From: a virus
DNA length: 64,000 nt
Direction: 5' to 3' (one strand)
Virus record (IMG/VR): IMGVR_UViG_3300031972_002446
Coordinates: 64,001 to 128,000 of that record
Within the stretch, counting starts at the first letter, position 1. Each line of letters opens with the position of its first letter. This document shows positions 19,909 through 57,942 of the stretch, piece by piece. The notes below the pieces were generated by a model. That model ran no database searches and was not told the DNA's origin. It saw only the letters and a list, made by a program, of their open reading frames with translations. Both the position numbers and the translations under genes were made by a program.

Positions 19909-20853
19909 ATGAGCCGTTGCTGTACTGATGATTGCACTTGCCCTGAAGCACCCAAAACAGGAGCCTGGAGCACTGCGCACGGTCCTGGTTGTTGTGGTTG
20001 TCTCTACGATCAGGAGGGTGCTAGTTGCACAGATGTTCATGGTAAAAAACTTCCTGAGAGACATCCAGATCCTGATAATTGCAGTTGCATATGTAAAGGC
20101 GCTTCAGATGAGATTTGTGCGGCAAATCCGGGAATTCATACAGAGTTTGATAGTTTGAATTGTAGATGTTGGTGTTCTTATCTTGATGAAGAAGATGATG
20201 GAACTATAACAGATACTTGCGCTGGAGATAGTGGTGGTAAAATGTTTATTGACAAGGGATGTGATTGTGTTTGCGAATCAAGTTTTCCTTGTCCAGATCC
20301 TAAAAAACCTAAATGGGTCGTAAATGGTAAATATGACTGTGAATGTAAGTGTGATATAGAGCCAGAAGAATGTGAAGGATTCACGCCTGATTTTAATGAA
20401 GAAGAGTGTAAATGTCAATGTGATTTAATAGAAGCAAATCCAGATGAGCCTTGCCAAGATCCTGCAGCACCTCATTTCAACCACGCGGGATGTGGATGTG
20501 AATGTTATACATATAAGGTGGAATGTGATGAACCAGCCAAACCAGATGTAAAAAAAGAAGATTGTTCGTGTTTTTGTAGCAAAGCTGAGACAGGCTATTG
20601 TGAAAGCATAGAAACTGGTACCGGAGCTCAAGCAGGAAATTATCATGTTTTAGATCCTGCTAATTGTAAATGTGTATGTAACGCTGAGTGCTCAGCTCCT
20701 CTTGTGAAAGGAGATGGATGTTATTGTCGCTGTCCCTCAGAAACTATTTCTCCTACGTGTGATAAAGCTACTGAGAAATTTGATCCAGATAGTTGTTCGT
20801 GTGTTCCAAAAGATTATGTTTTAAGTCTTTTGAGTGAAGAGTTAATTCCGTAG
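19909..20853 (+). CDS. Cys-rich CxCxC-repeat protein (paralog 1)
   Basis: ~46 Cys in 314 aa; 9 CxCxC motifs each preceded by a lone Cys; AGGAG RBS. Confidence 0.8.
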   Translation: MSRCCTDDCTCPEAPKTGAWSTAHGPGCCGCLYDQEGASCTDVHGKKLPERHPDPDNCSCICKGASDEICAANPGIHTEFDSLNCRCWCSYLDEEDDGTITDTCAGDSGGKMFIDKGCDCVCESSFPCPDPKKPKWVVNGKYDCECKCDIEPEECEGFTPDFNEEECKCQCDLIEANPDEPCQDPAAPHFNHAGCGCECYTYKVECDEPAKPDVKKEDCSCFCSKAETGYCESIETGTGAQAGNYHVLDPANCKCVCNAECSAPLVKGDGCYCRCPSETISPTCDKATEKFDPDSCSCVPKDYVLSLLSEELIP

Positions 20854-41717: not shown

Positions 41718-44700
41718 ATGGCAGCAGCTTTTAATTTAACGGCACAAATTAATTTAAGAGGACCTAGTAATACTAAGGTTATTGCTTCTCAAATTAGAAA
41801 GCAATTATCTAATATTAAAGTAAAAGTTAATCTTGATTTAAAAGGATCAGCAGCTAAAAATGTTACTAAGGTTAACAAGCAGTTACAGTTGTTACAGCAA
41901 AATGCTGCTAAAGCTAATGCTAGTGTTGCTAGTTTAAGTGCTACAGTATCTCAGTTAGGGGCCGGTTTAAATAATTTAGGTGGCTCTGGAGGCGTTCAGT
42001 CTCTTAACAAAGTGCAAAAACAAGTGCAAAGTACTGGGAGTGCTATTAGCTCAGCTACTACCCAAGTTCAAGAATTTGGAAAACAATCAGGCTTAGCTAT
42101 TCGTAGATTCGCTGCTTTTAGTGCTGTTACTGGTGTTGTTTATAGTTTAACTAACGCTATTAATAGTGCTTTCAAAGAATTTGTAGCTTTTGATAAACAA
42201 ATTGTTCGATTAAGTCAGGTAACAGGAACGACTGTTAGTGGCCTTTCTGGTATTACAAAAGAAATCTCTAATCTATCTAGCAATTTAGGTGTTGCGTCTT
42301 CTGATTTAGCTCAAGTATCTGTTACACTTTCTCAAGCTGGTTTAAGCGCTCAAGAAACTAAAATAGCATTAGAAGCCTTAGCCAAATCTGCATTAGCTCC
42401 TTCTTTTGATAATCTTAATAATACTGTTGAAGGTAGTATTGCTTTAATGCGTCAGTTTAGTATTAGTTCTGGGGAGTTAGAAGCTGCTCTTGGTAGTGTG
42501 AATGCTGTAGCTGCTAGTTTTGCTGTTGAAGCTGGCGATATCATTGCTGCTATTCAGCGTACTGGTGGTGTGTTTGCTTCTTCTAGTAGGGGTATTAGTG
42601 AAGGTACGGCTGCTCTTAATGAATTTGTAGCTTTGTTTACTAGTGTTAGAGCGACTACTCGTGAAAGTGCAGAAACTATTGCTACTGGTTTAAGAACTAT
42701 CTTTACTAGAATACAAAGAGGTTCTACTATAGAGTCTTTGAAAGAGTTTGGTATTACGCTTACAGACTTACAAGGGAAATTTGTTGGACCCTTTGAAGCT
42801 GTTAAACGATTAAGCGAAGGTCTTAAAGGTTTAGATCCAAGAGATTTGCGTTTTGGTCAAATTGTCGAAGAGCTTGGTGGTTTCCGTCAAATTGGTAAAG
42901 TTATTCCTTTAATTCAACAGTTCGCCACTGCTCAAAAAGCTTTAGGGGTAGCTCAATCTGGGCAAGGCAGTTTATCTAAAGCGGCTATACAAGCTCAAGC
43001 ATCTTTAGCAGTTCAATTTGAAAAAACCAGACAGTCTTTTGTTTCTTTAGTTAGAGATATAGGTAATAGCACAACTTTCAGAGGCATTGCTAAAGTTGCT
43101 TTAACAACAGCAAATGCATTTATAACATTGGCTTCAGCATTAAAACCTTTATTGCCTATGATAACGGCCTTAGCTGCTTTTAAGGGAGTTTCGGCATTAA
43201 GTGAATTTGGTGGTGGTTTTCTTGGTGGGTTTGGAGGTAAAGGCGGAGGCGGAGGAGGCGGAGGTGGTCCATCAGGCCCAATGGGTCCAATAGGTCCTTC
43301 TTCTGGCGGTAGTGTTAGTGGTAGAGGTAGTGGTCGTAGGAATAAAGGCTCGGCTTCTAACAACAAAGCTTTAGCTAAAAATTCAGCAGCTTTAAACGCT
43401 AATACAACAGCACTAGGCTCTGTAAATACTAGTATGGCTAGCTTACTTCAGTCTATTGATGCTTTGTCTGAAGCTATTAATAATAAACAATCTGGAGTTA
43501 ATACTCAAGGCTTTGCTAGTGGTGGTTTGGTTCCTGGAAGTGGTAATAGAGACACTGTATCTGCTATGCTAACTCCTGGTGAATATGTTATTCGTAAAAA
43601 AGCTGTTGAAAAAATAGGCGCAGATAATCTTAAAAAACTTAATCGTGGAGGTAGAGTACAAAGATTTACCGGTGGTGGTGGAGCTGAAGCTTTGACTGTA
43701 GACGATATTAAAATATTTGAATCTGGTCAAAACGCAGGAGGAATTCCTAAGGGACAATTAAAAAACATGCCGAGTAGCCTAGCACAATCTGTAATAGATC
43801 GTTATAAAGGTAAAGGTAAACTTAATCAAGAAACATTTAAAGCCTTAAAAGAAAAAGTAGCATTAAAAGCAGCACAAGATAAAGCAGTACCTTATGCACT
43901 AGTTGGCCTGAGAGGAACTGCTAAAGAAGTGTTTGCAGAAGCTGATGACGGAACTATGGTAAAGCTTATTGGCAGAACTTTAGGCGAGACTGATGATAAT
44001 AAACCTTATGAAGATACTATGTTTAAGGATTTCAAAGACACGGTAGCTAAAGTGGCTAATCAGATGGCTACAAAAGTACAAGCTCAGCCAGTATCGCCAG
44101 GCGATCTGAATAAAGATGCTATGGAAAAAGCAGGTTTCTTTAATGCTGTAGGAGCTTATCTCGAAGCGGCTGTAGCAAGTATTGGTGCTCCTTACGATAA
44201 AGATCAGTCTAATGATCCACTAGATTTTGCGCAAGGTTTGGGTTCTGCTTCTGGTTTATTTGGCTTACCATCGGACATGCCTGCTGATACCACAAGAACA
44301 GTTTTTAGTAGTGGTAAAAGTCCTGCAGATTTTCTGAAACAAGTGAATAATTATAGAGCAAAATTAGCTGGAGGAGGCTCTGTTAGCGACACGGTTCCTG
44401 CATTATTAACTCCTGGTGAGTATGTAATCAATGAAAAGTCTGCAAAAAAATTAGGATCTCAAAAATTAGATCAACTTAATAGAGCAGATAGGATTCAAGG
44501 TTATGCTAGTGGCGGCCCTGTTGGTTTTGTTCAACGTTTAGCTAGTGGTGGTAGTCCTAGAGCAGATAAAATGGAATATCTGGAAAGAGTAGCTAAAAAA
44601 CTTGGAATGACTGTTTCACAATACGAAAAAAGTATTAGAAGTAGAATTCTTCAAGGAGCAGAAACTAGAGCTACCGAGAAAACAGGTATGCAAGGAGATC

Positions 44701-47700: not shown

Positions 47701-50700
47701 AAAAATTTAATAAAACATTATCGTTAAGTAGTCTTAATGCACCATTCATGAATTCTGTATCAGGATTAACCGGAGGTACCACAGATCCTGAAAAAATTGG
47801 TAGAGAGTTAGCTTCTGCTATCGAAAGACAAAGACAAATTGAAGCTGATCCTAATTCCCAAACGACTGCTTTAGGCTCTGGTGAAGTTGCTAAATTAACT
47901 TCTAAAATTAATAAATATCAAAAAGCTTTAGATATATTAGCAACTAGTACAGATAGAGCATCTAATGCATTGAAAAAGATTGATGAGCAACAAAGAATTT
48001 CTTCTGGACGAAGAAGTGGTGTTATGAGTTTTCTTTCTAACATAAATAACCCAGAAGCTTTGTTAGGTATGAGGCAAGAACAACAGTCTTATTCTAATGT
48101 TATGGCAGGTACAGGAACTATTACAGATATTGCTAGAGGTACTAATAGTCTTAATATGATGGAGTCAACTCAAACTCCTGAGCAGTTCCAGAAAACGCAA
48201 CAAAAATTCTTTGAAAATGCTATGCGTATTTTAGAGGCTAATGGTGCTAATCCCGCTGTCTTTAAACAATTTAGAGAATCATTCGCTGGTGATTTCGCCG
48301 CTCCTGATGCAAATCCTGCTGTTAAACCATTTATTGATGCGTATCAAGAAGCTGCTAGAATACAAACAGAAGCTGTTAAGCAACAATCTAATTTATTAAA
48401 TAGTGGAGCAGTAATAGCAGCGGATACTTTAAAGAAAAGCGCAGACGCTTTCGCTACTAAAATGAAAGAAGCCACTGCAGAAATTGTTAAAGAGTTTAAC
48501 GCAGTTGCTGATAGACTAGGTTTAGGCAAACCTAAGGACTCTAATAAAATGTCTAGTGGAGGTGTGGTATATGCTTCTGCTGGTCAATTTGTTAATTTTA
48601 CGCCTAAAGGCACCGATACTGTTCCTGCTATGTTAACGCCTGGTGAGTTTGTTGTTAATCGATCAGCAACTTCTAAGAATTTACCTTTATTAAAATCTAT
48701 TAATAGTGGTGGCTATAGTAGTGGTGGTAGTGTTGGTTATTATGCTGATGGTGGACAAATCGGACCAGGTTTAAAAACTGTTAATCGTAATTTTAATCTT
48801 TTATCTCCTTATCCAGAAAAAAGTTTAGACAATTTCCAAGAATATAAAGATCATGTACCATATGGGTATATGGATAGGTATTTTGGAAATAAAGATAGTG
48901 CTGTTTCTGAACGAGAGCTTAAATCAATGAATCAAGCTATTCAGAAACATCAAAAACAATACTTTACCACAACTAAGGTTAATCGCTATAAAAGCTTAAG
49001 ATCATTAGTGCCTGAATGGGAGAAAAACGAGAAAAACCAAGACAAACAAGCTAGTTTTTGGGATTGGATTACAGGGTCTAGTCCTGATAGAGGCATGAAA
49101 TTTAATTCTGGTAATTTTAAAAGTGTTAAAGATGCTAAAATTTTTGCTGGAACAATGGAAGCTGCTCATGGTATTCCTTTAGGGCGGGGTGTTGGTACTG
49201 GGGATATAGGAAGTTCTACATATAGTGGTAGATTTTATGGTGGCGATTCTTCATTTCCTATGGATAGTGCTACAAGTCAAGGATTTGGAGAGCTTTTACA
49301 ACAAAGAATTATACAATCTCGTTCTACAGATTGGGAAGCGTTTTTCTATGGTTTAGCTTCAAAGGCATTGCCTACTATTGGAGGTATTATTGGCGGTGGT
49401 ATTGGTGCTGTTTTAGGTGGTACGGCTGCGGTAGCTTCAGGAGGTCTGGGTGCGTGGGGTGTTCCCATCTTTACTGTAGCAGGTGCTATGGGTGGTAATA
49501 TGGCTGGTCATGCGGTTAATAGTTTTGCATACAGTATGTTACCTGATTCATGGCAAAAGCGTATTGAGCAAAAGGTTAATGACAATCCTGGTTCGTATAA
49601 TGCCGGACAATGGTTAGGCTTCGGAGCTGATGTGGTAGCAGGTGGTATGGGCGCCAATGCTGTTGCGAAAGGTATTAGCAGATCTATACCTCCAAGAGCA
49701 ATAGTTCAACAATTTGTCAGACAGGGTGGTACTACAGGAGTTAATGCGGCTCGCCCGACTGTAGAAGATGCTATTGATATGGCTACAAAATCTGCTGGAA
49801 CTAAAGCTGCTAATAATTCTAGAAATATTGGTAATAAAATACCAGTTACAGGTCAGCCAAATGCTACATTAAATATTGGTTCTGTAGATGATATATTGAG
49901 TTTACCACCAGGAATAAAACCATCTGGAGGAGCTAGACCTACTGGGTTACCTGGAGGAGGAGCTAGACCTACTGGGTTACCTGGACCTACTGGGGCATCT
50001 GGTGCTACTGGTGGTGCAGCATCTGCTACTGCTAGAGCTGGTGCAATTCAAATGAAAAAATTAGCTATGGCTCTAGAAGAAACTTTGTATGCAGGTAAAC
50101 CGCAACAATTAGTAGATGATATTATGTCTCCTAATGGTAAAGGTATATATGAGGTATTAGGTAGAGACCCTCAAATTCAAAGTGCTACTTTTAGAAAATT
50201 ACAAAAACTTCTACATCCAGATATGATGAGACATTCTAAAATGTTTGATGGTATGGGTTTAGATGATGCTGCAATAAAACTTTTCCAAAAACGATTGAGC
50301 TCAATGAAAACTGTTTTAGATAATAGTCTCATGCGAGCAGATTATGATCAGCTTTTAGGGAGAGGTCATTATGCTGACGATCTTTTAGATAATTTATCGC
50401 GTAATGGATTTAATGTTAGACAACTGTTGCAGCCAGGGTCGAGAGCTGCCGCAGCAACACCTAAACCTAAACCAGGTAGCCAAGCGCCGCCAAAACCAAA
50501 GGCTGAATCACCAAAACCTAAACCAGATCAACCTAAACCGGGTCAGCCTAAACCTAAACCAGATCAACCTAAGCCAGGGCAATCTTCTAAACCTAAGCCA
50601 GGACAATCGTCTAAACCTAAGCCAGGACAATCGTCTAAACCTAAGCCAGGACAATCGTCTAAACCTAAGCCGGGTGAAACACCTAAGCCGAGTCAACCTA

Positions 50701-53700
50701 AACCACCTACTGGTAGCGGGTCAAGGACTTGGTCACAATTTCTGGACGATTGGATGGGTGGTAGCGTTGGTCGGGGTTACTATACCGGTTCAGGTATTGG
50801 TGAAATGCTTAGTGGCATGCTCGGTTTTGGTTTAACACCTGATCCGTCTAAAAGATCATCATCACAAAGCGAATCACCTAAGCCTTTACCTGGTGGTTAT
50901 CCAGATAAATCTTCTAAAGCTAAAGATCAAGCAGCTAAAGACGCTATTGAGCAAATGACAGAAAAAACCAAAAGAACATTTGGAACAACAGATAGGGGTA
51001 TTATGGACCAAGTTCAATTTGGAACAGACGGTCAATACAAGTTCGGCCAGGTTCAAAATGCTGCAGCCTCTTTAAAGCTAAAAGATCCACTTAAAAGAGT
51101 TAATTTCTTATATAGAAATATTAGTATTCCTGAATTTGAACTAGGTATGGGTGGTCAGGGTTCTACAGGCGTAGCTGAGGGTCAGTTATTGACACAAAAA
51201 CAGCGTAAAGATGCCGAAGAAGAATATTTATTCATTAATAAAAAAGTCTCAGATATGTATAGTAACCCTTCTGCTCATGGGAATACCTTACAAGCTTACC
51301 TCCAAAGAAGAGGTCAGCTTAAGACTATGCTAGATAGTGATTTTAGAGCTCAATATAATCTTGGTGTTCCTACAGGAGATAAGCCTACATTTAATCTGAA
51401 ACCTCCTGTAAAACCCAATACAGAACCGCCTACAGAGAAAGAAAAAAGAATGCTTAGAGATGGTGTTATAGATGATAATGCCACTCTTCAAGGGCTATTA
51501 GCACAGCAAGATACTGGAACAGCAAATAGAAAAAACTCAACTGTTATGGCTGGTTTTACACAAAGATTTTCAGATCTTGAAGAGACTAAAAATACAGAAG
51601 GCGCTAGCTTTGCTCTCTTAAAGAAATTTAATTCTGTCAAATTAGATTATATTAAAGCTTTTGGTCAAGTTAAAGGAGTTAGTGATAAAGCTATAGACCC
51701 AGGTTTATTAAGCGTTGCTTCTACTCAAGAACAGGTAGATGCTGAAGTAAAAGCTTTAAAAACAGATATATCTTCTAAGACTAATAATAAAGATTGGATG
51801 GCTGGAAACTCACAAGCTCAAGCTACAGATAAGCAAAAGATTAAAACAAAAGCAGATATAGCAAAAATGGTTGCAAAATATTCTGAACAATCTGGAGTTA
51901 CAGATCCTAAAAAACTTAAAGATTGGTTACAGAAACAATCAGGAATTCGTCAAGAGCTTAAAGGTAGACATTCTTTATGGGATAATTATTATACAAAAGA
52001 AAAGGAATTTAAAGACAAAGAATTAGAACATTTATTCCAAACAGAACGATGGGGATATAGAGATGAGTTAAAGAAAAACCCTGAAGGAAGAATGTATGGT
52101 GATGGTAGTATGGGTATGAATAGTTTAGAGTATTTACTATTTAATCATCCTGCTAAAGTTGCTCATAATTTTATTAATCCTTTTAATCAAAACAAAAGTA
52201 CGGATGAATTATTATACGGGGCTCCTCTAGGCACTGTTAAACCAGAAACACATGCTACCAGAACTCAAAATGCTATTAGAAAATATCTCAAATCTTTTGG
52301 TAAATCTTTAGGCATACAAGCTCCTATCGATGAAAACACCAATGTCGATGAATGGTTTAAGAATTTAGATCCTAATTTAATGACAGACTTAAATGCTGAA
52401 GGAAATCTAAACCAATTAATGAAGGTAGGCAATGAAAGTCAAGGCGCTACCATGTTAGATATTCTCAAAAATATGTATCAGCCAGGTAGTCAAGAAGTCA
52501 CAGACAATGTTGCTGCTCGTTTTGGTCTTTGGTCTGTGGTTGGTGCTGATGATGCTAGAAACAAAGATTTTGGTAAAGAATATCAATCAGAATTCTTAAG
52601 AAGACTATACAAATATGTGGAGAGTACATCTACACAGAAAAGTAAAGAGTCTTTCCAAATGACTGAAAGTGTTGATACATATCTTAAGATGATCGATGCT
52701 TTAGCTGCTTATACGGGTCAAATGGATCCTGCTATTTATGGTAAAGCTTCTGATAATTTCGGACCTTTAGTAATTCCAAAACAATTAAAAGGTAAAACCG
52801 AAAAAGAACAAATGAAAAATCTTTCTAGAGTTATTGGGAGAGATTTTTATAAATATACAAGATCAACATTTGATTATGAATTTGGTGGCATCACGAGTGC
52901 TGAAGATTATGGTAAGGTTGGAGATCGCTTAGGTATTCAGGGTTACAGTCCAGAAGATCTTAGAAGAACAGTTTTTGCTGATAGAAATACTTTAAGACGT
53001 ATATATGAGCGTAAAGCTTATAGCGTTGGTGGAGGTTTAACAACTGCTGATACTTTAGTTAATACTGGTATGGCCACATTATTTAATGCTAATAAAGACA
53101 AAACCGTTGATTCTGGGGATTTAGCTAATTTTTATGATTTAGATGGTAATGTCTTGAGCGAAGGCACTACTATAATGGGTTTGATATCTAAAGCTTTAGA
53201 TTTTGGAAAAAGAATGCCTGTTGCCAATAGACAGGGTATGATTGATTATGCTAAAGACTTCGATTTCAAGGGAAACCTAGCAGACGATAGTTACGCTAAA
53301 TATGAGGAAAATCTTGATAATAATTTACACGCTTTAAAATCCACATATAAACTTTGGGATTCGCTTGTTTATTACAGTAAGCCTAACCCTGGAACAACCA
53401 AAGCAGAGACTGTTGATTTAAACGCAGCAGGACCTGTTCTACAATCAGCTACGGCGGGAGGTTCTATAAACATTGCTGGTACTCAGATTCCTTCAGTAGA
53501 TTTCTTAAGTAAGTATCAAAACGCATTGGAAACTACTGGCGCTAAGGCTTATGGTCAAATTGTAGAAGCTGGTAGTATTTTCAATGATCATGTAGGAGGT
53601 AGTAGCAACTTTACATTAGCTGGTGCTCCAAATCCGTTTGATAATCCAGAATTTATTGCTTTAAAGAAATTCAAACAATTACAAGAAGTTGGTACTGTTA

Positions 53701-54335
53701 ATGCTGCTACCGGTGGTCATATTTCTGGAGGTATGGGTGCAGGCAAAGCGTCTCTAGTAAACTACAAACCTGTAGGAACCGATACTGTACCAGCCATGCT
53801 CACCCCAGGTGAATACGTTATCAATAGAAGTGCAACGCAACAGCACTTACCTTTATTAAAAGCTATTAATAATGGTGGACTATCTTATGCTAGTAATGGA
53901 GGAATGATTCAACCTCAGTATAAAAACATTGGAGGTTTAGCATCGTCTGCTCTTAGTTATATGGGTGGTGGAGGTTTGGATATGGGGAATGCTTCCAGAG
54001 TATTTGACGGCTTCGTGTCAAGTTTTAGTAAAGAAATTGCATCTTTTGGTGGTTTAATTAATAATTTAGCCAAAGTATTCCCAGCACTATCCGGTCCTGT
54101 TAATAATTTTGGTAATCATGTAGATAAGTTAGCTAAATCCTTAAATGATCTGCAAAATATTGAGATTAAAGGACCGAACATCCCAGAAACCATTAGGTTG
54201 AATAGTGATGCTATTAGGGTTGAGATAGACTATGTTCCTGGATCTAATAAGCTCTCACCAGATGCTGAGGATAAATTAGCAAGCCAGGTAGCAGCTAAAC
54301 TTAAGACATTAGTTGATTTGGGTAGAATAAGTTGA
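41718..54335 (+). CDS. giant tail tape measure protein (4205 aa) with accessory domains
   Basis: N-terminal TP901-type TMP core (LSQAG, E.IATGLRTIF.RI), Ala/Gly helical regions, hydrophobic Gly zippers, repeated GG..DTVPAMLTPGE(Y/F)V motifs. Confidence 0.9.
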   Translation: MAAAFNLTAQINLRGPSNTKVIASQIRKQLSNIKVKVNLDLKGSAAKNVTKVNKQLQLLQQNAAKANASVASLSATVSQLGAGLNNLGGSGGVQSLNKVQKQVQSTGSAISSATTQVQEFGKQSGLAIRRFAAFSAVTGVVYSLTNAINSAFKEFVAFDKQIVRLSQVTGTTVSGLSGITKEISNLSSNLGVASSDLAQVSVTLSQAGLSAQETKIALEALAKSALAPSFDNLNNTVEGSIALMRQFSISSGELEAALGSVNAVAASFAVEAGDIIAAIQRTGGVFASSSRGISEGTAALNEFVALFTSVRATTRESAETIATGLRTIFTRIQRGSTIESLKEFGITLTDLQGKFVGPFEAVKRLSEGLKGLDPRDLRFGQIVEELGGFRQIGKVIPLIQQFATAQKALGVAQSGQGSLSKAAIQAQASLAVQFEKTRQSFVSLVRDIGNSTTFRGIAKVALTTANAFITLASALKPLLPMITALAAFKGVSALSEFGGGFLGGFGGKGGGGGGGGGPSGPMGPIGPSSGGSVSGRGSGRRNKGSASNNKALAKNSAALNANTTALGSVNTSMASLLQSIDALSEAINNKQSGVNTQGFASGGLVPGSGNRDTVSAMLTPGEYVIRKKAVEKIGADNLKKLNRGGRVQRFTGGGGAEALTVDDIKIFESGQNAGGIPKGQLKNMPSSLAQSVIDRYKGKGKLNQETFKALKEKVALKAAQDKAVPYALVGLRGTAKEVFAEADDGTMVKLIGRTLGETDDNKPYEDTMFKDFKDTVAKVANQMATKVQAQPVSPGDLNKDAMEKAGFFNAVGAYLEAAVASIGAPYDKDQSNDPLDFAQGLGSASGLFGLPSDMPADTTRTVFSSGKSPADFLKQVNNYRAKLAGGGSVSDTVPALLTPGEYVINEKSAKKLGSQKLDQLNRADRIQGYASGGPVGFVQRLASGGSPRADKMEYLERVAKKLGMTVSQYEKSIRSRILQGAETRATEKTGMQGDLKDVIVKNIQSIGDADVEGMVRTEVSDLVKKIYTGYDEIDPDLLNQGIDELVQGMKAGLSLDEIKNMSDGFKEILDAQITAGDELSGVTEEMAKKLGFLTSRMKVRDIDMKASGSQKAGKFGALDDDLRKAQKSIESGVGSILDGFSEAVSLQNLPGMKKLSSAYPELTKKITTAGDKLGGTFGLIGTGATLLSSKMPELGHAFDELAGTVSDQSAAFAGFTGALQKGGSLGMSAGIVGGQAFGRRGAAVGGAAGLAAGAVTGFIDASIVKETELAFKGIAAASAELDKTFNRLDTAVTVEERAALQEQAAEDYNKLNAAIQRATDTIDGNRLWKSFSAGISGMTTAMISLIGVINAVKLAQVASALLPGKVSGGIVKGYASGGFAKGGQSSGMGVPVRLASGEAVFTPPLPGTLSEMKQLNQIDRGGSSSLSRKGQTGGSFIVPGNSSGKVDNQSAILPENSFVLRRDATDTLKAMRGGPISAATGGLIGSGSVGFGGSGGIRGYSVGGNIQGYFGGGRVASALLAKLVANLGRLGPAITAGFGRMSPALKAITGQLATMVGISALAGLFSGFFSFFMGSAERDRAILQQQLQQLENLNTLVGNQQSMDVRNEAFADRLIPAVDAIENSGLSMDQKEMQFGRFRTPGGRMNDANLLGEMTARQAIGADADLEAVGQNQSVQEYLDSLDPTQRQKANAAIDKAQGELLRSTFIEKRKREGMDEVEASRAYDSDPQAAKAEAQEALGEKSRAEGLAKRMQIINRSINKFTLNLVDVMNRLGSVMNRTIGDLNANIDKMSQVSDIYSGGQAGSLNPNEDNVRILSNITAASNAELAQAVGQINKDLGDTKETQTMAGLIKGIQVLQKELPLILRQTGTGGDLDAGSETSIRGRLDTMFQGLDIGENLKRDLKSNVINFINDKTGSRQGDSFEDLANYIDGLKELDEAAEQARATFEKYAKEQADFNRKLGGLSNQLSAQLSKLADNAIRVKDIQLNSALQLSEKFNKTLSLSSLNAPFMNSVSGLTGGTTDPEKIGRELASAIERQRQIEADPNSQTTALGSGEVAKLTSKINKYQKALDILATSTDRASNALKKIDEQQRISSGRRSGVMSFLSNINNPEALLGMRQEQQSYSNVMAGTGTITDIARGTNSLNMMESTQTPEQFQKTQQKFFENAMRILEANGANPAVFKQFRESFAGDFAAPDANPAVKPFIDAYQEAARIQTEAVKQQSNLLNSGAVIAADTLKKSADAFATKMKEATAEIVKEFNAVADRLGLGKPKDSNKMSSGGVVYASAGQFVNFTPKGTDTVPAMLTPGEFVVNRSATSKNLPLLKSINSGGYSSGGSVGYYADGGQIGPGLKTVNRNFNLLSPYPEKSLDNFQEYKDHVPYGYMDRYFGNKDSAVSERELKSMNQAIQKHQKQYFTTTKVNRYKSLRSLVPEWEKNEKNQDKQASFWDWITGSSPDRGMKFNSGNFKSVKDAKIFAGTMEAAHGIPLGRGVGTGDIGSSTYSGRFYGGDSSFPMDSATSQGFGELLQQRIIQSRSTDWEAFFYGLASKALPTIGGIIGGGIGAVLGGTAAVASGGLGAWGVPIFTVAGAMGGNMAGHAVNSFAYSMLPDSWQKRIEQKVNDNPGSYNAGQWLGFGADVVAGGMGANAVAKGISRSIPPRAIVQQFVRQGGTTGVNAARPTVEDAIDMATKSAGTKAANNSRNIGNKIPVTGQPNATLNIGSVDDILSLPPGIKPSGGARPTGLPGGGARPTGLPGPTGASGATGGAASATARAGAIQMKKLAMALEETLYAGKPQQLVDDIMSPNGKGIYEVLGRDPQIQSATFRKLQKLLHPDMMRHSKMFDGMGLDDAAIKLFQKRLSSMKTVLDNSLMRADYDQLLGRGHYADDLLDNLSRNGFNVRQLLQPGSRAAAATPKPKPGSQAPPKPKAESPKPKPDQPKPGQPKPKPDQPKPGQSSKPKPGQSSKPKPGQSSKPKPGQSSKPKPGETPKPSQPKPPTGSGSRTWSQFLDDWMGGSVGRGYYTGSGIGEMLSGMLGFGLTPDPSKRSSSQSESPKPLPGGYPDKSSKAKDQAAKDAIEQMTEKTKRTFGTTDRGIMDQVQFGTDGQYKFGQVQNAAASLKLKDPLKRVNFLYRNISIPEFELGMGGQGSTGVAEGQLLTQKQRKDAEEEYLFINKKVSDMYSNPSAHGNTLQAYLQRRGQLKTMLDSDFRAQYNLGVPTGDKPTFNLKPPVKPNTEPPTEKEKRMLRDGVIDDNATLQGLLAQQDTGTANRKNSTVMAGFTQRFSDLEETKNTEGASFALLKKFNSVKLDYIKAFGQVKGVSDKAIDPGLLSVASTQEQVDAEVKALKTDISSKTNNKDWMAGNSQAQATDKQKIKTKADIAKMVAKYSEQSGVTDPKKLKDWLQKQSGIRQELKGRHSLWDNYYTKEKEFKDKELEHLFQTERWGYRDELKKNPEGRMYGDGSMGMNSLEYLLFNHPAKVAHNFINPFNQNKSTDELLYGAPLGTVKPETHATRTQNAIRKYLKSFGKSLGIQAPIDENTNVDEWFKNLDPNLMTDLNAEGNLNQLMKVGNESQGATMLDILKNMYQPGSQEVTDNVAARFGLWSVVGADDARNKDFGKEYQSEFLRRLYKYVESTSTQKSKESFQMTESVDTYLKMIDALAAYTGQMDPAIYGKASDNFGPLVIPKQLKGKTEKEQMKNLSRVIGRDFYKYTRSTFDYEFGGITSAEDYGKVGDRLGIQGYSPEDLRRTVFADRNTLRRIYERKAYSVGGGLTTADTLVNTGMATLFNANKDKTVDSGDLANFYDLDGNVLSEGTTIMGLISKALDFGKRMPVANRQGMIDYAKDFDFKGNLADDSYAKYEENLDNNLHALKSTYKLWDSLVYYSKPNPGTTKAETVDLNAAGPVLQSATAGGSINIAGTQIPSVDFLSKYQNALETTGAKAYGQIVEAGSIFNDHVGGSSNFTLAGAPNPFDNPEFIALKKFKQLQEVGTVNAATGGHISGGMGAGKASLVNYKPVGTDTVPAMLTPGEYVINRSATQQHLPLLKAINNGGLSYASNGGMIQPQYKNIGGLASSALSYMGGGGLDMGNASRVFDGFVSSFSKEIASFGGLINNLAKVFPALSGPVNNFGNHVDKLAKSLNDLQNIEIKGPNIPETIRLNSDAIRVEIDYVPGSNKLSPDAEDKLASQVAAKLKTLVDLGRIS
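50458..50708 (+). repeat. Pro-Lys low-complexity coding repeat including 24-bp tandem units
   Basis: tctaaacctaagccaggacaatcg x3-4 encoding SKPKPGQS. Confidence 0.9.
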
Positions 54336-56001: not shown

Positions 56002-57942
56002 ATGAATAAAAAATATGAAATAAACTACACTTTTCCTAATTGCTTATCAGAATATAGTGGTACTATATCTATCACAGATTTAACGAATGGTAATTTATCC
56101 ATGACATGGTTGAATTTACCAGAAACAGCTGTGATAAATAGTAAAGGTATGTCTGTTAATAATTTACAATGCGGCATATATGAATTGGATATATACGACA
56201 CTAGCACAGATCAAAACCACAAAGAAATTATAGATATTACATGCTTTAACGACCTAACCCTCGATCTTGTACAAATAGATGACTTAAATTGTATAAATGA
56301 TATGGGCGTTTTAAATATTAGTTGGTCTGGAGGACAGGCTCCTTATAAAGTGTCTTTAAATTCTGATAGTGTCTCAACTAACGATACTCATTTATCTTAT
56401 GATATTATAGCTAATAAAAAATACAAATTAACTATTAAAGATAGTAATAACTGCATACTGAGCAAATCAGATATTATAAAAACTATTAAACCCATGAAAG
56501 TTGAAATAGGTTGGGAATCTATTAAACATAATGGTGGTGTTTCTGGAGATGTTTTTTATAAAATTCAAGGAGGTGTTGAGCCATATAAAGTAGCTTGGTT
56601 TACCCAAAAAGATACCAATCATCCATTAATTATAAATCAAAATCATATTCAAAATAAACTACAAAGTAATCATTATAAACTAATGGTAACAGACTCTGTT
56701 GGATGTTCTATAGATAAATCTTTCTATATTTCAGAACCACCTCCTATTATTGTACAAACTAAAGAATCTGCTGATTATAGTTTTAAAGCAACTTATCCTA
56801 ATATCAAATCAAAAAGTTTCTATAATTTAATATTATTAAATAATTATGATAAACCTATAAAATATTTATTAAATAAAAAAATTACTTTAAAACATAAAAA
56901 TATTAATAGTAAACAAAAAATTATTATGAATTATGGAAATATAACACTAGATGGTGTTGATTATCAGTACTTTTATATTAATCCAGGAATACCTGCTCTT
57001 AAAAGCTCGAACTCTGAATTGATAATAGAAGATGGTGATGATTCAGAAGCATTGCTTTTATCTCATGATATAAATTTTAATAATCAAAATAAATTGCTGG
57101 TAGGTTCTGTTATATTATCAGATATTTATGATTATATATTTCATGATAATGATATAGTAGAAATTATAGATAATGATGGAAATACGCTAAAAACTTGTAT
57201 AGATCAAGCACATAACCAGGCTCAATTGTATGACAATATTAATGCTTCTACAGTAATTAATTTTATTAATAGGGATAATTCTGAATCAGAAGATATTCTT
57301 AAATTATTAAATAATAGAAAATCACTTAATAATAATCAAATTAAATGCTTAACAACAAAATATAATAATAAGATGGGTGAACTACATTGTTTAATTCACG
57401 GTGGGGACAAACAGACTCTTAAGTTAGATATTCTATATTCAGATGGTAATGTTGATACTTATGATATAGACAATAATAGTATTATTTTAAAGAATTTAAC
57501 ACATGGTACGTATAGAATTAAAGTTTATGATAAGTATAATATAGCGCATGAATATAATAGAATATATACAGGTGAATATTATGAATTCGACATTATGTCT
57601 TCTTTTGATGAAGAACAGGAAAATTGTAAGATAGCAGCTATATCTAAGTATAATTTAGATCCTAGTTTTCTGAATAGATATGATCAAACTCCTAGTAAAT
57701 TATTATTTACATCACCAGAATTCAAAAACGGGGTATTAATTAATATATCTCCTTCAGAGTCTTGTTATGATATTATTGATGATGAAGGTAATGTTATAGA
57801 GGATTGTGGATATAAGGTTATAAATTTGGAATATGGTAAGTATAAAATATATGCACAGCACGAAGGACATGAATCTGTTGAAAAAGTGTTTTTCGTAAAT
57901 TCTCCTAAGGAATTAGTAACTATAGTATTAGAAAAGGAATAG
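56002..57942 (+). CDS. SprB-repeat-like beta protein, putative tail/adhesion component
   Basis: GG.APY..., GG..PY..W, G.Y...I.D.N.C, I.EP repeats. Confidence 0.6.
   Translation: MNKKYEINYTFPNCLSEYSGTISITDLTNGNLSMTWLNLPETAVINSKGMSVNNLQCGIYELDIYDTSTDQNHKEIIDITCFNDLTLDLVQIDDLNCINDMGVLNISWSGGQAPYKVSLNSDSVSTNDTHLSYDIIANKKYKLTIKDSNNCILSKSDIIKTIKPMKVEIGWESIKHNGGVSGDVFYKIQGGVEPYKVAWFTQKDTNHPLIINQNHIQNKLQSNHYKLMVTDSVGCSIDKSFYISEPPPIIVQTKESADYSFKATYPNIKSKSFYNLILLNNYDKPIKYLLNKKITLKHKNINSKQKIIMNYGNITLDGVDYQYFYINPGIPALKSSNSELIIEDGDDSEALLLSHDINFNNQNKLLVGSVILSDIYDYIFHDNDIVEIIDNDGNTLKTCIDQAHNQAQLYDNINASTVINFINRDNSESEDILKLLNNRKSLNNNQIKCLTTKYNNKMGELHCLIHGGDKQTLKLDILYSDGNVDTYDIDNNSIILKNLTHGTYRIKVYDKYNIAHEYNRIYTGEYYEFDIMSSFDEEQENCKIAAISKYNLDPSFLNRYDQTPSKLLFTSPEFKNGVLINISPSESCYDIIDDEGNVIEDCGYKVINLEYGKYKIYAQHEGHESVEKVFFVNSPKELVTIVLEKE

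Follow-up and report, generated by a model that had tools for sequence, protein, structure and literature searches.

The J-domain (PF00226), as found in residues 1–70 of E. coli DnaJ and in DNAJC24/DPH4 (PDB 1wjz and 2l6l), is the N-terminal domain of Hsp40 co-chaperones. It has a YxxLG motif in helix I, a basic helix II with the tripeptide HPD, F..L..M..VL in helix III and R..YD..G in helix IV. Phage products with an HPD-bearing J-domain have been described as separate, soluble, expressed proteins with clear J-domains, namely Rki of phage RB43 (Perrody et al. 2012, PMC3486835) and the DnaJ of jumbo phages (PMC7824862), and both are presumed to use host DnaK. In this study, a segment with a similar series of elements was analyzed in the middle of the 4,205-aa tape measure protein (TMP), a virion protein of an uncultured aquatic phage of ~166 kb. 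The analyzed DNA, here called the window, is a stretch of 64,000 nucleotides (positions 64,001 to 128,000) of the IMG/VR virus record IMGVR_UViG_3300031972_002446, which is 165,940 bp long and judged complete. The segment scored below the cut-off of the J-domain family, and its J fold is putative. Compared with Rki and the jumbo-phage DnaJ, it is far more divergent and is part of an ejected structural protein. It is proposed here, at about even confidence, to be a J-domain that is divergent yet functional and that, as accessory cargo of the TMP, would recruit host DnaK to it.

Functional motifs within TMPs are also known. According to the passages of PMC12619734 that cite the original work, the TMP of mycobacteriophage TM4 contains a peptidoglycan-hydrolase motif (Piuri & Hatfull 2006), and the TMP of HK97 depends on PtsG and on FkpA, a chaperone of the periplasm (Cumby et al. 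2015). As described there, TM4 is an example of an accessory TMP module acting at infection, and HK97 offers a precedent for cooperation between a TMP and a host chaperone in genome injection. Both act at the cell wall or in the periplasm, whereas a J-domain needs the cytoplasmic, ATP-dependent Hsp70. The phage polyvalent proteins (Iyer et al. 2017, PMC5512222) are giant virion proteins with swappable effector domains delivered alongside DNA, while the carrier in the present case is the TMP itself. The text of PMC5512222 does not mention the J-domain, DnaJ, Hsp70 or the tape measure protein. In GenBank, 70 phage records matched the DnaJ J-domain, and a TMP annotation was found for none of the 40 matches listed. 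No description of a J-domain inside a TMP was found in the searchable literature. Stand-alone phage J-domain proteins and TMPs with embedded motifs, as in TM4, are known already.

The TMP and the resemblance of its insert to J-domains

The 4,205-aa product was assigned by its domain content and gene context as a tape measure protein of the TP901 type. The gene is one uninterrupted open reading frame (ORF), the longest of a same-strand late-gene block. A Pfam scan of the ORF matched PhageMin_Tail (PF10145) with 76.7 bits and an E of 3e-21, above the cut-off of 33.2. Among GenBank phages, the sole protein match to the TMP was a distant one, the annotated TMP gp30 of Rhodococcus phage Reynauld, and a search of the same phages with the TMP DNA gave no match. 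Identity in the N-terminal region was 50–88% for 65 IMG/VR loci. The protein collection contained at least 1,492 giant homologues with lengths of 2,312–7,359 aa, and many of them were named by their sources as TP901 family phage tail tape measure protein.

The initial annotation had described a J-domain peptide of 59 residues (GIYEVLG...KTVL) embedded in the TMP, flanked by Pro/Gly and Pro/Lys linkers and preceded by hydrophobic Gly-zipper segments. This layout was confirmed. The peptide is the exact, in-frame translation of 50142–50320 and corresponds to residues 2809–2867 of the ORF, and its place inside a TMP was borne out by the single ORF and the PF10145 match. Both linkers flank the insert (Table 1), and an uncharged hydrophobic Gly-zipper block of 44–46 residues lies ~215 residues before it. 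The J-like stretch outlasts the end given at first (50320). A helix-IV-like motif, RADYDQLLG, finishes at nt 50360 and is the stretch that locally fits helix IV of DnaJ best.

The description of the peptide as matching the J-domain pattern was upheld in part. The four motif elements occurred in order with an intact HPD, whereas the basic residue after HPD was missing and the Pfam cut-off was not reached. DnaJ was the only Pfam match of the segment. The two top NCBIfam matches were HscB (E 0.025) and DnaJ_bact (E 0.092), both of them J-domain families. BLASTP against residues 1–77 of E. coli DnaJ gave 26.9 bits and 33% identity, with an E of 4e-6 for this one pairwise comparison. The alignment paired YEVLG with YEILG, HPD with HPD, and VL.NS..RA.YDQ with VLTDS.KRAAYDQ. 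HPD was aligned to H33-P34-D35 of DnaJ by BLASTP, hmmsearch and hhalign alike. When a DnaJ hidden Markov model (HMM) built for this analysis was used to rank 7,540 tiles, taken in six frames from the window together with 65 related loci, the insert came first with 11.1 bits, and the runner-up had 7.5 bits. In hhalign, the single sequence scored 30.0 against the DnaJ alignment (P 6e-5) over 61 columns, covering J positions 5–69. As a control, 600 random 137-residue pieces from the same TMP family reached a maximum of 21.3, over short stretches only. Among language-model look-alikes, the ten best named clusters were all DnaJ (cosine 0.87), which was taken as a lead only. A phmmer search of PDB sequences with the insert returned noise and no J-domain, and a PHROGs scan of the insert gave no J-related match. 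Taken at the level of sequence, the resemblance to J-domains is weak and domain-wide, and it exceeds family-matched chance. Membership in PF00226 was not established.

Beyond HPD, the residues of DnaJ that are critical for function by mutagenesis are Y25, K26, R36, N37 and F47. In the hhalign register, Y25 and F47 were each paired with F, and K26 was paired with R; these positions were kept or conservatively replaced. R36 and N37 both corresponded to M and were lost.

Relatives bearing an insert with HPD were investigated in the best 119 full-length members of the family of at least 1,492 proteins, by searching for HPD and with local HMMs. Two further insert types were obtained, which brought the lineages with an insert to three. 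The first was in P0141 (5,483 aa), where the segment at ~aa 3849–3946 was a homologue of the window's insert with 48 bits and an E of 1.3e-8 in a database of 877,000 residues. It was collinear with the window's insert and had the corresponding conserved blocks on either side. A variant ~88% identical to that of P0141 was present at the IMG/VR locus L089/L090, the contig of which is also the contig of metagenome locus L091. The second type was in P0159 (4,989 aa; 9 contigs), at ~aa 3584–3683. This segment starts with DIYKLFGV, contains KLLHPD and is more canonical-looking, and its similarity to the window's insert was weak (24 bits). The pentapeptide LLHPD was invariant in the three insert types at a mutual identity of 24–35%, and Pro/Lys-rich linkers flank all three. 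In the survey of related TMPs, HPD was kept in the three lineages with an insert, and the insert was absent from 116 of the 119 full-length relatives.

The three insert types were then compared with J-domains singly and together. With the P0159 insert alone, all four phmmer matches in the PDB were J-domain proteins (best E 0.055), and two of the three members matched DnaJ when scanned singly with Pfam (best E 0.011). In hmmsearch against the PDB, the profile of the three sequences (A3) matched 1wjz, the J-domain of DNAJC24, at an E of 1.6e-4 and 2l6l at an E of 0.002. Of its 18 matches at E ≤10, 14 were J-domain proteins, and their alignments covered the full length and kept HPD in register. 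The A3 profile was matched by hhalign to the DnaJ alignment with a probability of 89–90% and an E of 1.5e-6. Homology of the segment to J-domains is supported by these profile methods.

The structure of the insert was predicted with AlphaFold2 from the alignment of the three sequences. Canonical J-domains were kept out of the alignment, since their inclusion would force the answer. The resulting model was all-helical and of moderate confidence, with a mean predicted local distance difference test score (pLDDT) of 68.6 and a predicted template modeling score (pTM) of 0.62. Prediction from the 137-aa insert as a single sequence gave a pLDDT of 43.6 and was unusable. The predicted helices followed the order of a J-domain: a short helix over IYEVL, one ending before HPD, a long one over AAIKLFQKRLSSMKTVL and a last one over NSLMRADYDQLL. 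By DSSP, HPD was located between helices 50–59 and 63–69 of the model. With Foldseek, nothing in the PDB matched at E ≤0.001; a J-domain led the list, with an E of 4 and a TM of 0.24–0.29. VIA-align of the model with the J-domain chains 2lgw, 6rzy, 2ctw, 2cug and 5nro_B gave Z of 2.5–3.1 and root mean square deviations of 3.2–5.4 Å over 50–71 residues. In a wide VIA-align search, no J-domain was among the matches listed. The best match there (Z 5.7), to the helical domains of eIF2B, was judged to be a generic helical match and was rejected as a relative. Comparison in three dimensions thus gave no confirmation of a J fold, and neither the presence nor the absence of that fold, the point raised with the initial annotation, follows from the model.

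The variable slot and its cargo

The window's TMP could be aligned with its close relatives as far as ~aa 2552–2727 and again from ~aa 3051–3077. The sequence in between was unalignable, and the insert lies in this slot. The slot contained short acidic repeats in locus L005 and Ser/Gly low-complexity sequence in locus L001. In L006/P0136, the flanks were near-identical to those of L089, and the slot held two copies of an unrelated module of ~50 residues. These modules, at 20600–21082 of L006 (TMP aa ~3660–3813), are tandem copies of STF.YEA.DTR.G......I.A.SQ.EA..LLKKQGL.VL with Pro/Lys linkers between them. Pfam found no match for the module, which we take to resemble the N-terminal domain of GspF/PilC.

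Recognizable domains were found in other TMPs of the family. The ADP-ribosyltransferase exotoxin domain PF03496 was present in P0198 (aa 948–1093), P0234 (aa 1538–1653) and P0138, with E from 1e-6 to 1e-7, over the Pfam cut-off. Further domains were PF03983 (SHD1) and PF28597. The ADP-ribosyltransferase domains suggest that parts of such TMPs act inside the cell. Judged by these domains and by the contents of the slot, the TMPs of the family function as carriers whose modules can be swapped, and some of these modules are able to act only intracellularly.

The window's insert was rare. By tblastn, it was found in none of the 65 related IMG/VR loci and none of 19 downstream extensions, and a scan of IMG/VR with the insert alone gave nothing. 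A word-index search of the proteins of 2,312–7,359 aa returned only the insert's own protein. A metagenome scan returned only a contig already known from IMG/VR, and a second scan, with confirmation against the P0159 type, gave no match. No match to the insert was found in GenBank phages. In P0184 and P0203, a segment at ~aa 5625–5775 had ~12 bits against the DnaJ HMM built here. It lacks HPD and was not counted; either a degenerate J-like element or noise may account for it. Since the insert was absent from the 65 loci and from 116 of the 119 full-length relatives, it is an accessory element and not part of the core function of the TMP.

Recent change in the insert could be followed in a close variant from ENA, L067, which was 95.8% identical in the C-terminal half of the TMP. 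Of 1,705 aligned codons, 131 differed (7.7%). In the insert, one of 145 codons differed (1 change in 435 nt), and the change was synonymous. Both linkers, Pro/Gly and Pro/Lys, had substitutions, indels and altered repeat numbers. Because synonymous sites were also depleted of changes in the insert, recent shared ancestry or cassette exchange is as likely an explanation as constraint on the protein. The near-identity of the insert in L067 suggests a recent cassette exchange or sweep.

Possible functions of the insert

The preferred reading is that the segment is a highly divergent J-domain, carried as an accessory module. Its fold would consist of four helices with HPD closing helix II, held in a linker-flanked, hypervariable slot downstream of the adjoining Gly-zipper module, itself a candidate membrane-insertion module. 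At infection, the TMP would exit the tail tube and its hydrophobic module would enter the cytoplasmic membrane. The tethered J-domain would then be exposed to the cytoplasm, where HPD would trigger ATP hydrolysis by DnaK, and DnaK would clamp nearby unfolded segments of the TMP or the linkers. The 4,205-residue chain would thereby be held or pulled at the entry site, or DnaK would be captured locally. The same domain could also act in the producing cell, by bringing DnaK to the TMP as it is synthesized. We infer the J fold, the binding of DnaK, the topology and the timing alike, and the DnaK recruitment and ratchet proposed in the initial annotation are conjectural. Action after ejection is favored because the slot is swappable, a candidate membrane module adjoins it, relatives carry intracellular effectors, and the TMP of lambda is within reach of a cytoplasm-facing label during injection, having been labeled by a TurboID fusion with ManZ, a permease component of the inner membrane (bioRxiv 10.1101/2025.11.03.685801).

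The preferred reading compares the TMP with protein translocases. In Pam18/Tim14 at TIM23 and in Sec63 at Sec61, a J-domain is placed beside a membrane channel, and Hsp70 is activated on the emerging unfolded chain. A functional analogy with these proteins is proposed for the insert; homology is limited to the J-domain, and the topology and channel role of the TMP are presumed. In a more specific form of this reading, the TMP would be its own Hsp70 import motor. After ejection, the Gly-zipper would form or join an inner-membrane conduit, the linker-tethered J-domain at the cytoplasmic mouth would load DnaK onto the TMP as it emerges unfolded, and ratcheting or entropic pulling would draw the chain from its very long tail and clear the way for DNA. 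This form is considered unlikely.

The main competing explanation, which is possible at a lower level of confidence than a working J-domain, is that the segment is an inert J-like relic or a chance look-alike. It would then be one among many helical spacers that evolve rapidly within the TMP's variable region, either descended from a J-domain and no longer engaging Hsp70 or J-like by chance, and its sole role would be structural, for instance in adding length or spacing within the lumen of the tail. A number of results point this way and weigh against a working J-domain. The scores in all curated libraries were below threshold: Pfam DnaJ gave 15.1 bits (E 0.026) with a tight 89-aa piece and 13.3 bits with a 137-aa piece, at a cut-off of 27.8, and the NCBIfam scores for HscB and DnaJ_bact were far under their cut-offs. 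An exhaustive phmmer search of 1.84 billion representatives gave no J-domain match at E ≤1e-3; two matches obtained there (E ~5e-4) were rejected as spurious, being internally repetitive proteins with summing repeats. A PF00226 profile search of the phage's own genome missed the segment, even with the limit relaxed to E 10. The same search of 38 related records found nothing and, as it misses the segment in its own genome, was unusable as a control.

The segment also departs from a canonical J-domain in its spacing. Between LG of helix I and HPD, it has 4 residues fewer than DnaJ, in helix II or in the loop before it, and ~9 extra residues follow HPD. In place of the usual K/R, HPD is directly followed by M in the window's insert and by T or I in the remaining two types. 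The closest homologue, the P0141/L089 type, was not J-like on its own in phmmer against the PDB or in hhalign, and a profile of two sequences, the window's insert and L089, was not significant in hmmsearch against the PDB. The A3 profile was not selection-free, because its P0159 member had been found through the HPD search and recognized by eye. The VIA-align scores with J-domains (Z ~3) were no better than those with unrelated helical proteins. The insert is dispensable, because it is missing in nearly all relatives, and its access to the cytoplasm is presumed. About 250,000 windows were scanned in all, and in so large a scan chance alone is expected to yield a few matches as strong as this one; sequence statistics alone are therefore insufficient to decide the identity of the segment.

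Other results are difficult to reconcile with an inert spacer. LLHPD is invariant in lineages that are otherwise highly divergent, and two insert types were independently J-like. The match spans the entire J-domain and not a single motif, it is well over the 600 family-matched controls, and the A3 profile reached solved J-domains. In inactive J-like domains such as Pam16, HPD is typically lost, and here it is retained. The working J-domain is kept as the preferred reading, at the even confidence given above.

An assembly role confined to the producing cell is rather improbable. In that case, a working J-domain would act in cis and bring DnaK to the growing chain of the TMP, which is 4,205 residues long and partly hydrophobic. 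DnaK would hold the chain in a soluble, unfolded state up to its handover to tail chaperones and tube subunits, and the J-domain would have no role after ejection. Such a role raises no question of topology, as the cytoplasm contains DnaK and the growing TMP alike. For the stand-alone DnaJ co-chaperones of jumbo phages, recruitment of host Hsp70 in folding and assembly has been predicted (PMC7824862). Five strongly hydrophobic blocks were found in the TMP by a Kyte–Doolittle scan, and no Hsp70 or second recognizable J protein was found encoded by this phage, both of which would suit an assembly aid. Against such a role, the insert is missing in more than 95% of the relatives that are as large or larger, with sizes of up to 7,135 aa. 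The swappable slot, with its unrelated modules in close relatives, is also suggestive of cargo directed at the host rather than of a housekeeping aid to folding.

Few copies of the TMP enter a cell per infection, and DnaK is present in thousands of molecules per cell. At such numbers titration of DnaK is implausible, and family library scans found no recognizable substrate-binding or targeting region beside the J-like core, so an injected effector that hijacks or titrates DnaK, for instance to perturb sigma-32 control or to interfere with a chaperone-dependent defense, without acting on the TMP is very improbable, even with the toxin-type ADP-ribosyltransferase domains of relatives as effector cargo and with two precedents in the passages of PMC12619734 that cite them, the J-domain protein Rki of phage RB43, which binds DnaK and stabilizes sigma-32 (Perrody 2012), and the DnaJ-mediated sensing of phage by the bNACHT25 defense (Conte 2025).

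Features of the TMP, neighboring genes and significance

The features of the TMP are collected in Table 1.

Table 1. Positions of the TMP, its insert and associated features in the window
Feature	Position (nt)	Strand	Basis
TMP gene, 4,205 aa	41718..54335	+	one uninterrupted ORF
PhageMin_Tail (PF10145) domain, conserved TMP N-terminal core, aa 181–375	42258..42842	+	Pfam
Copies of G..DTVPAMLTPGE(Y/F)V(I/V)N	43536-43625, 44373-44462, 48600-48689, 53766-53855		repeated motif within TMP
Hydrophobic Gly-zipper block, aa 2548–2593 (uncharged from aa 2550, 44 residues)	49359..49496	+	Kyte–Doolittle and uncharged-run scan
Conserved GQW[IL]GFGA... Gly-rich segment, upstream edge of variable slot	49605..49673	+	motif also 5' of slot in P0141, L089 and L006
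Pro/Gly-rich linker (GGARPTGLPG repeats)	49908..50027	+	sequence
Non-repetitive insert, 145 aa, aa 2771–2915: N-terminal helices, J-like core, C-terminal helices	50028..50462	+	AlphaFold2, homology to P0141
J-domain-like core, aa 2809–2881: IYEVLG / TFRKLQKLL-HPD / AAIKLFQKRLSSMKTVL / RADYDQLLG	50142..50360	+	Pfam, BLASTP, hhalign, PDB profile
HPD tripeptide, aa 2833–2835 (CAT CCA GAT), C-terminal end of predicted helix II	50214..50222	+	sequence, DSSP
Pro/Lys-rich linker, 85 residues (KPKPGQSS repeats)	50463..50717	+	sequence

A motif of ~20 residues, G..DTVPAMLTPGE(Y/F)V(I/V)N, occurs in four copies in the TMP, at aa 619, 898, 2307 and 4029. It was also found repeatedly in relatives, and BLAST cross-matches join the copies. 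The length of the TMP ranged from ~2,300 to more than 7,100 residues among phages with an N-terminal domain 66–87% identical. If tail length scales with TMP length as in lambda, this range implies very long and very unequal tails in the TMP family.

Two genes 3' of the TMP, at 56002–57942 of the window, a 646-aa protein had a weak match to Hoc-like Ig-type decoration proteins (phrog_2973, E 4e-6). The other proteins of the tail module were mostly without any PHROG match. A TMP N-terminal domain of 51% identity was encoded by a contig of 7.6 kb, L092 (NZCP01000025.1), in a metagenome-assembled genome (MAG) labeled Candidatus Woesebacteria. This is probably a phage contig co-binned with the MAG. 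It was the only lead to a host and was rejected as uninformative.

To our knowledge, the transfer of the long unfolded TMP, and then of DNA, across the cytoplasmic membrane by siphoviruses, and the energy source for it, are poorly understood. If a J-domain is built into the ejected TMP, host Hsp70 would be implicated as a motor or a holdase at the entry site. An Hsp70 import motor of the kind described above would be the bacterial-virus counterpart of TIM23-PAM and Sec61-Sec63-BiP. For this very large family of uncultured aquatic phages, with at least 1,492 TMPs of 2,300–7,400 residues, the use of the TMP as a carrier of interchangeable modules, toxin-type ADP-ribosyltransferases among them, extends the concept of polyvalent proteins to TMPs.

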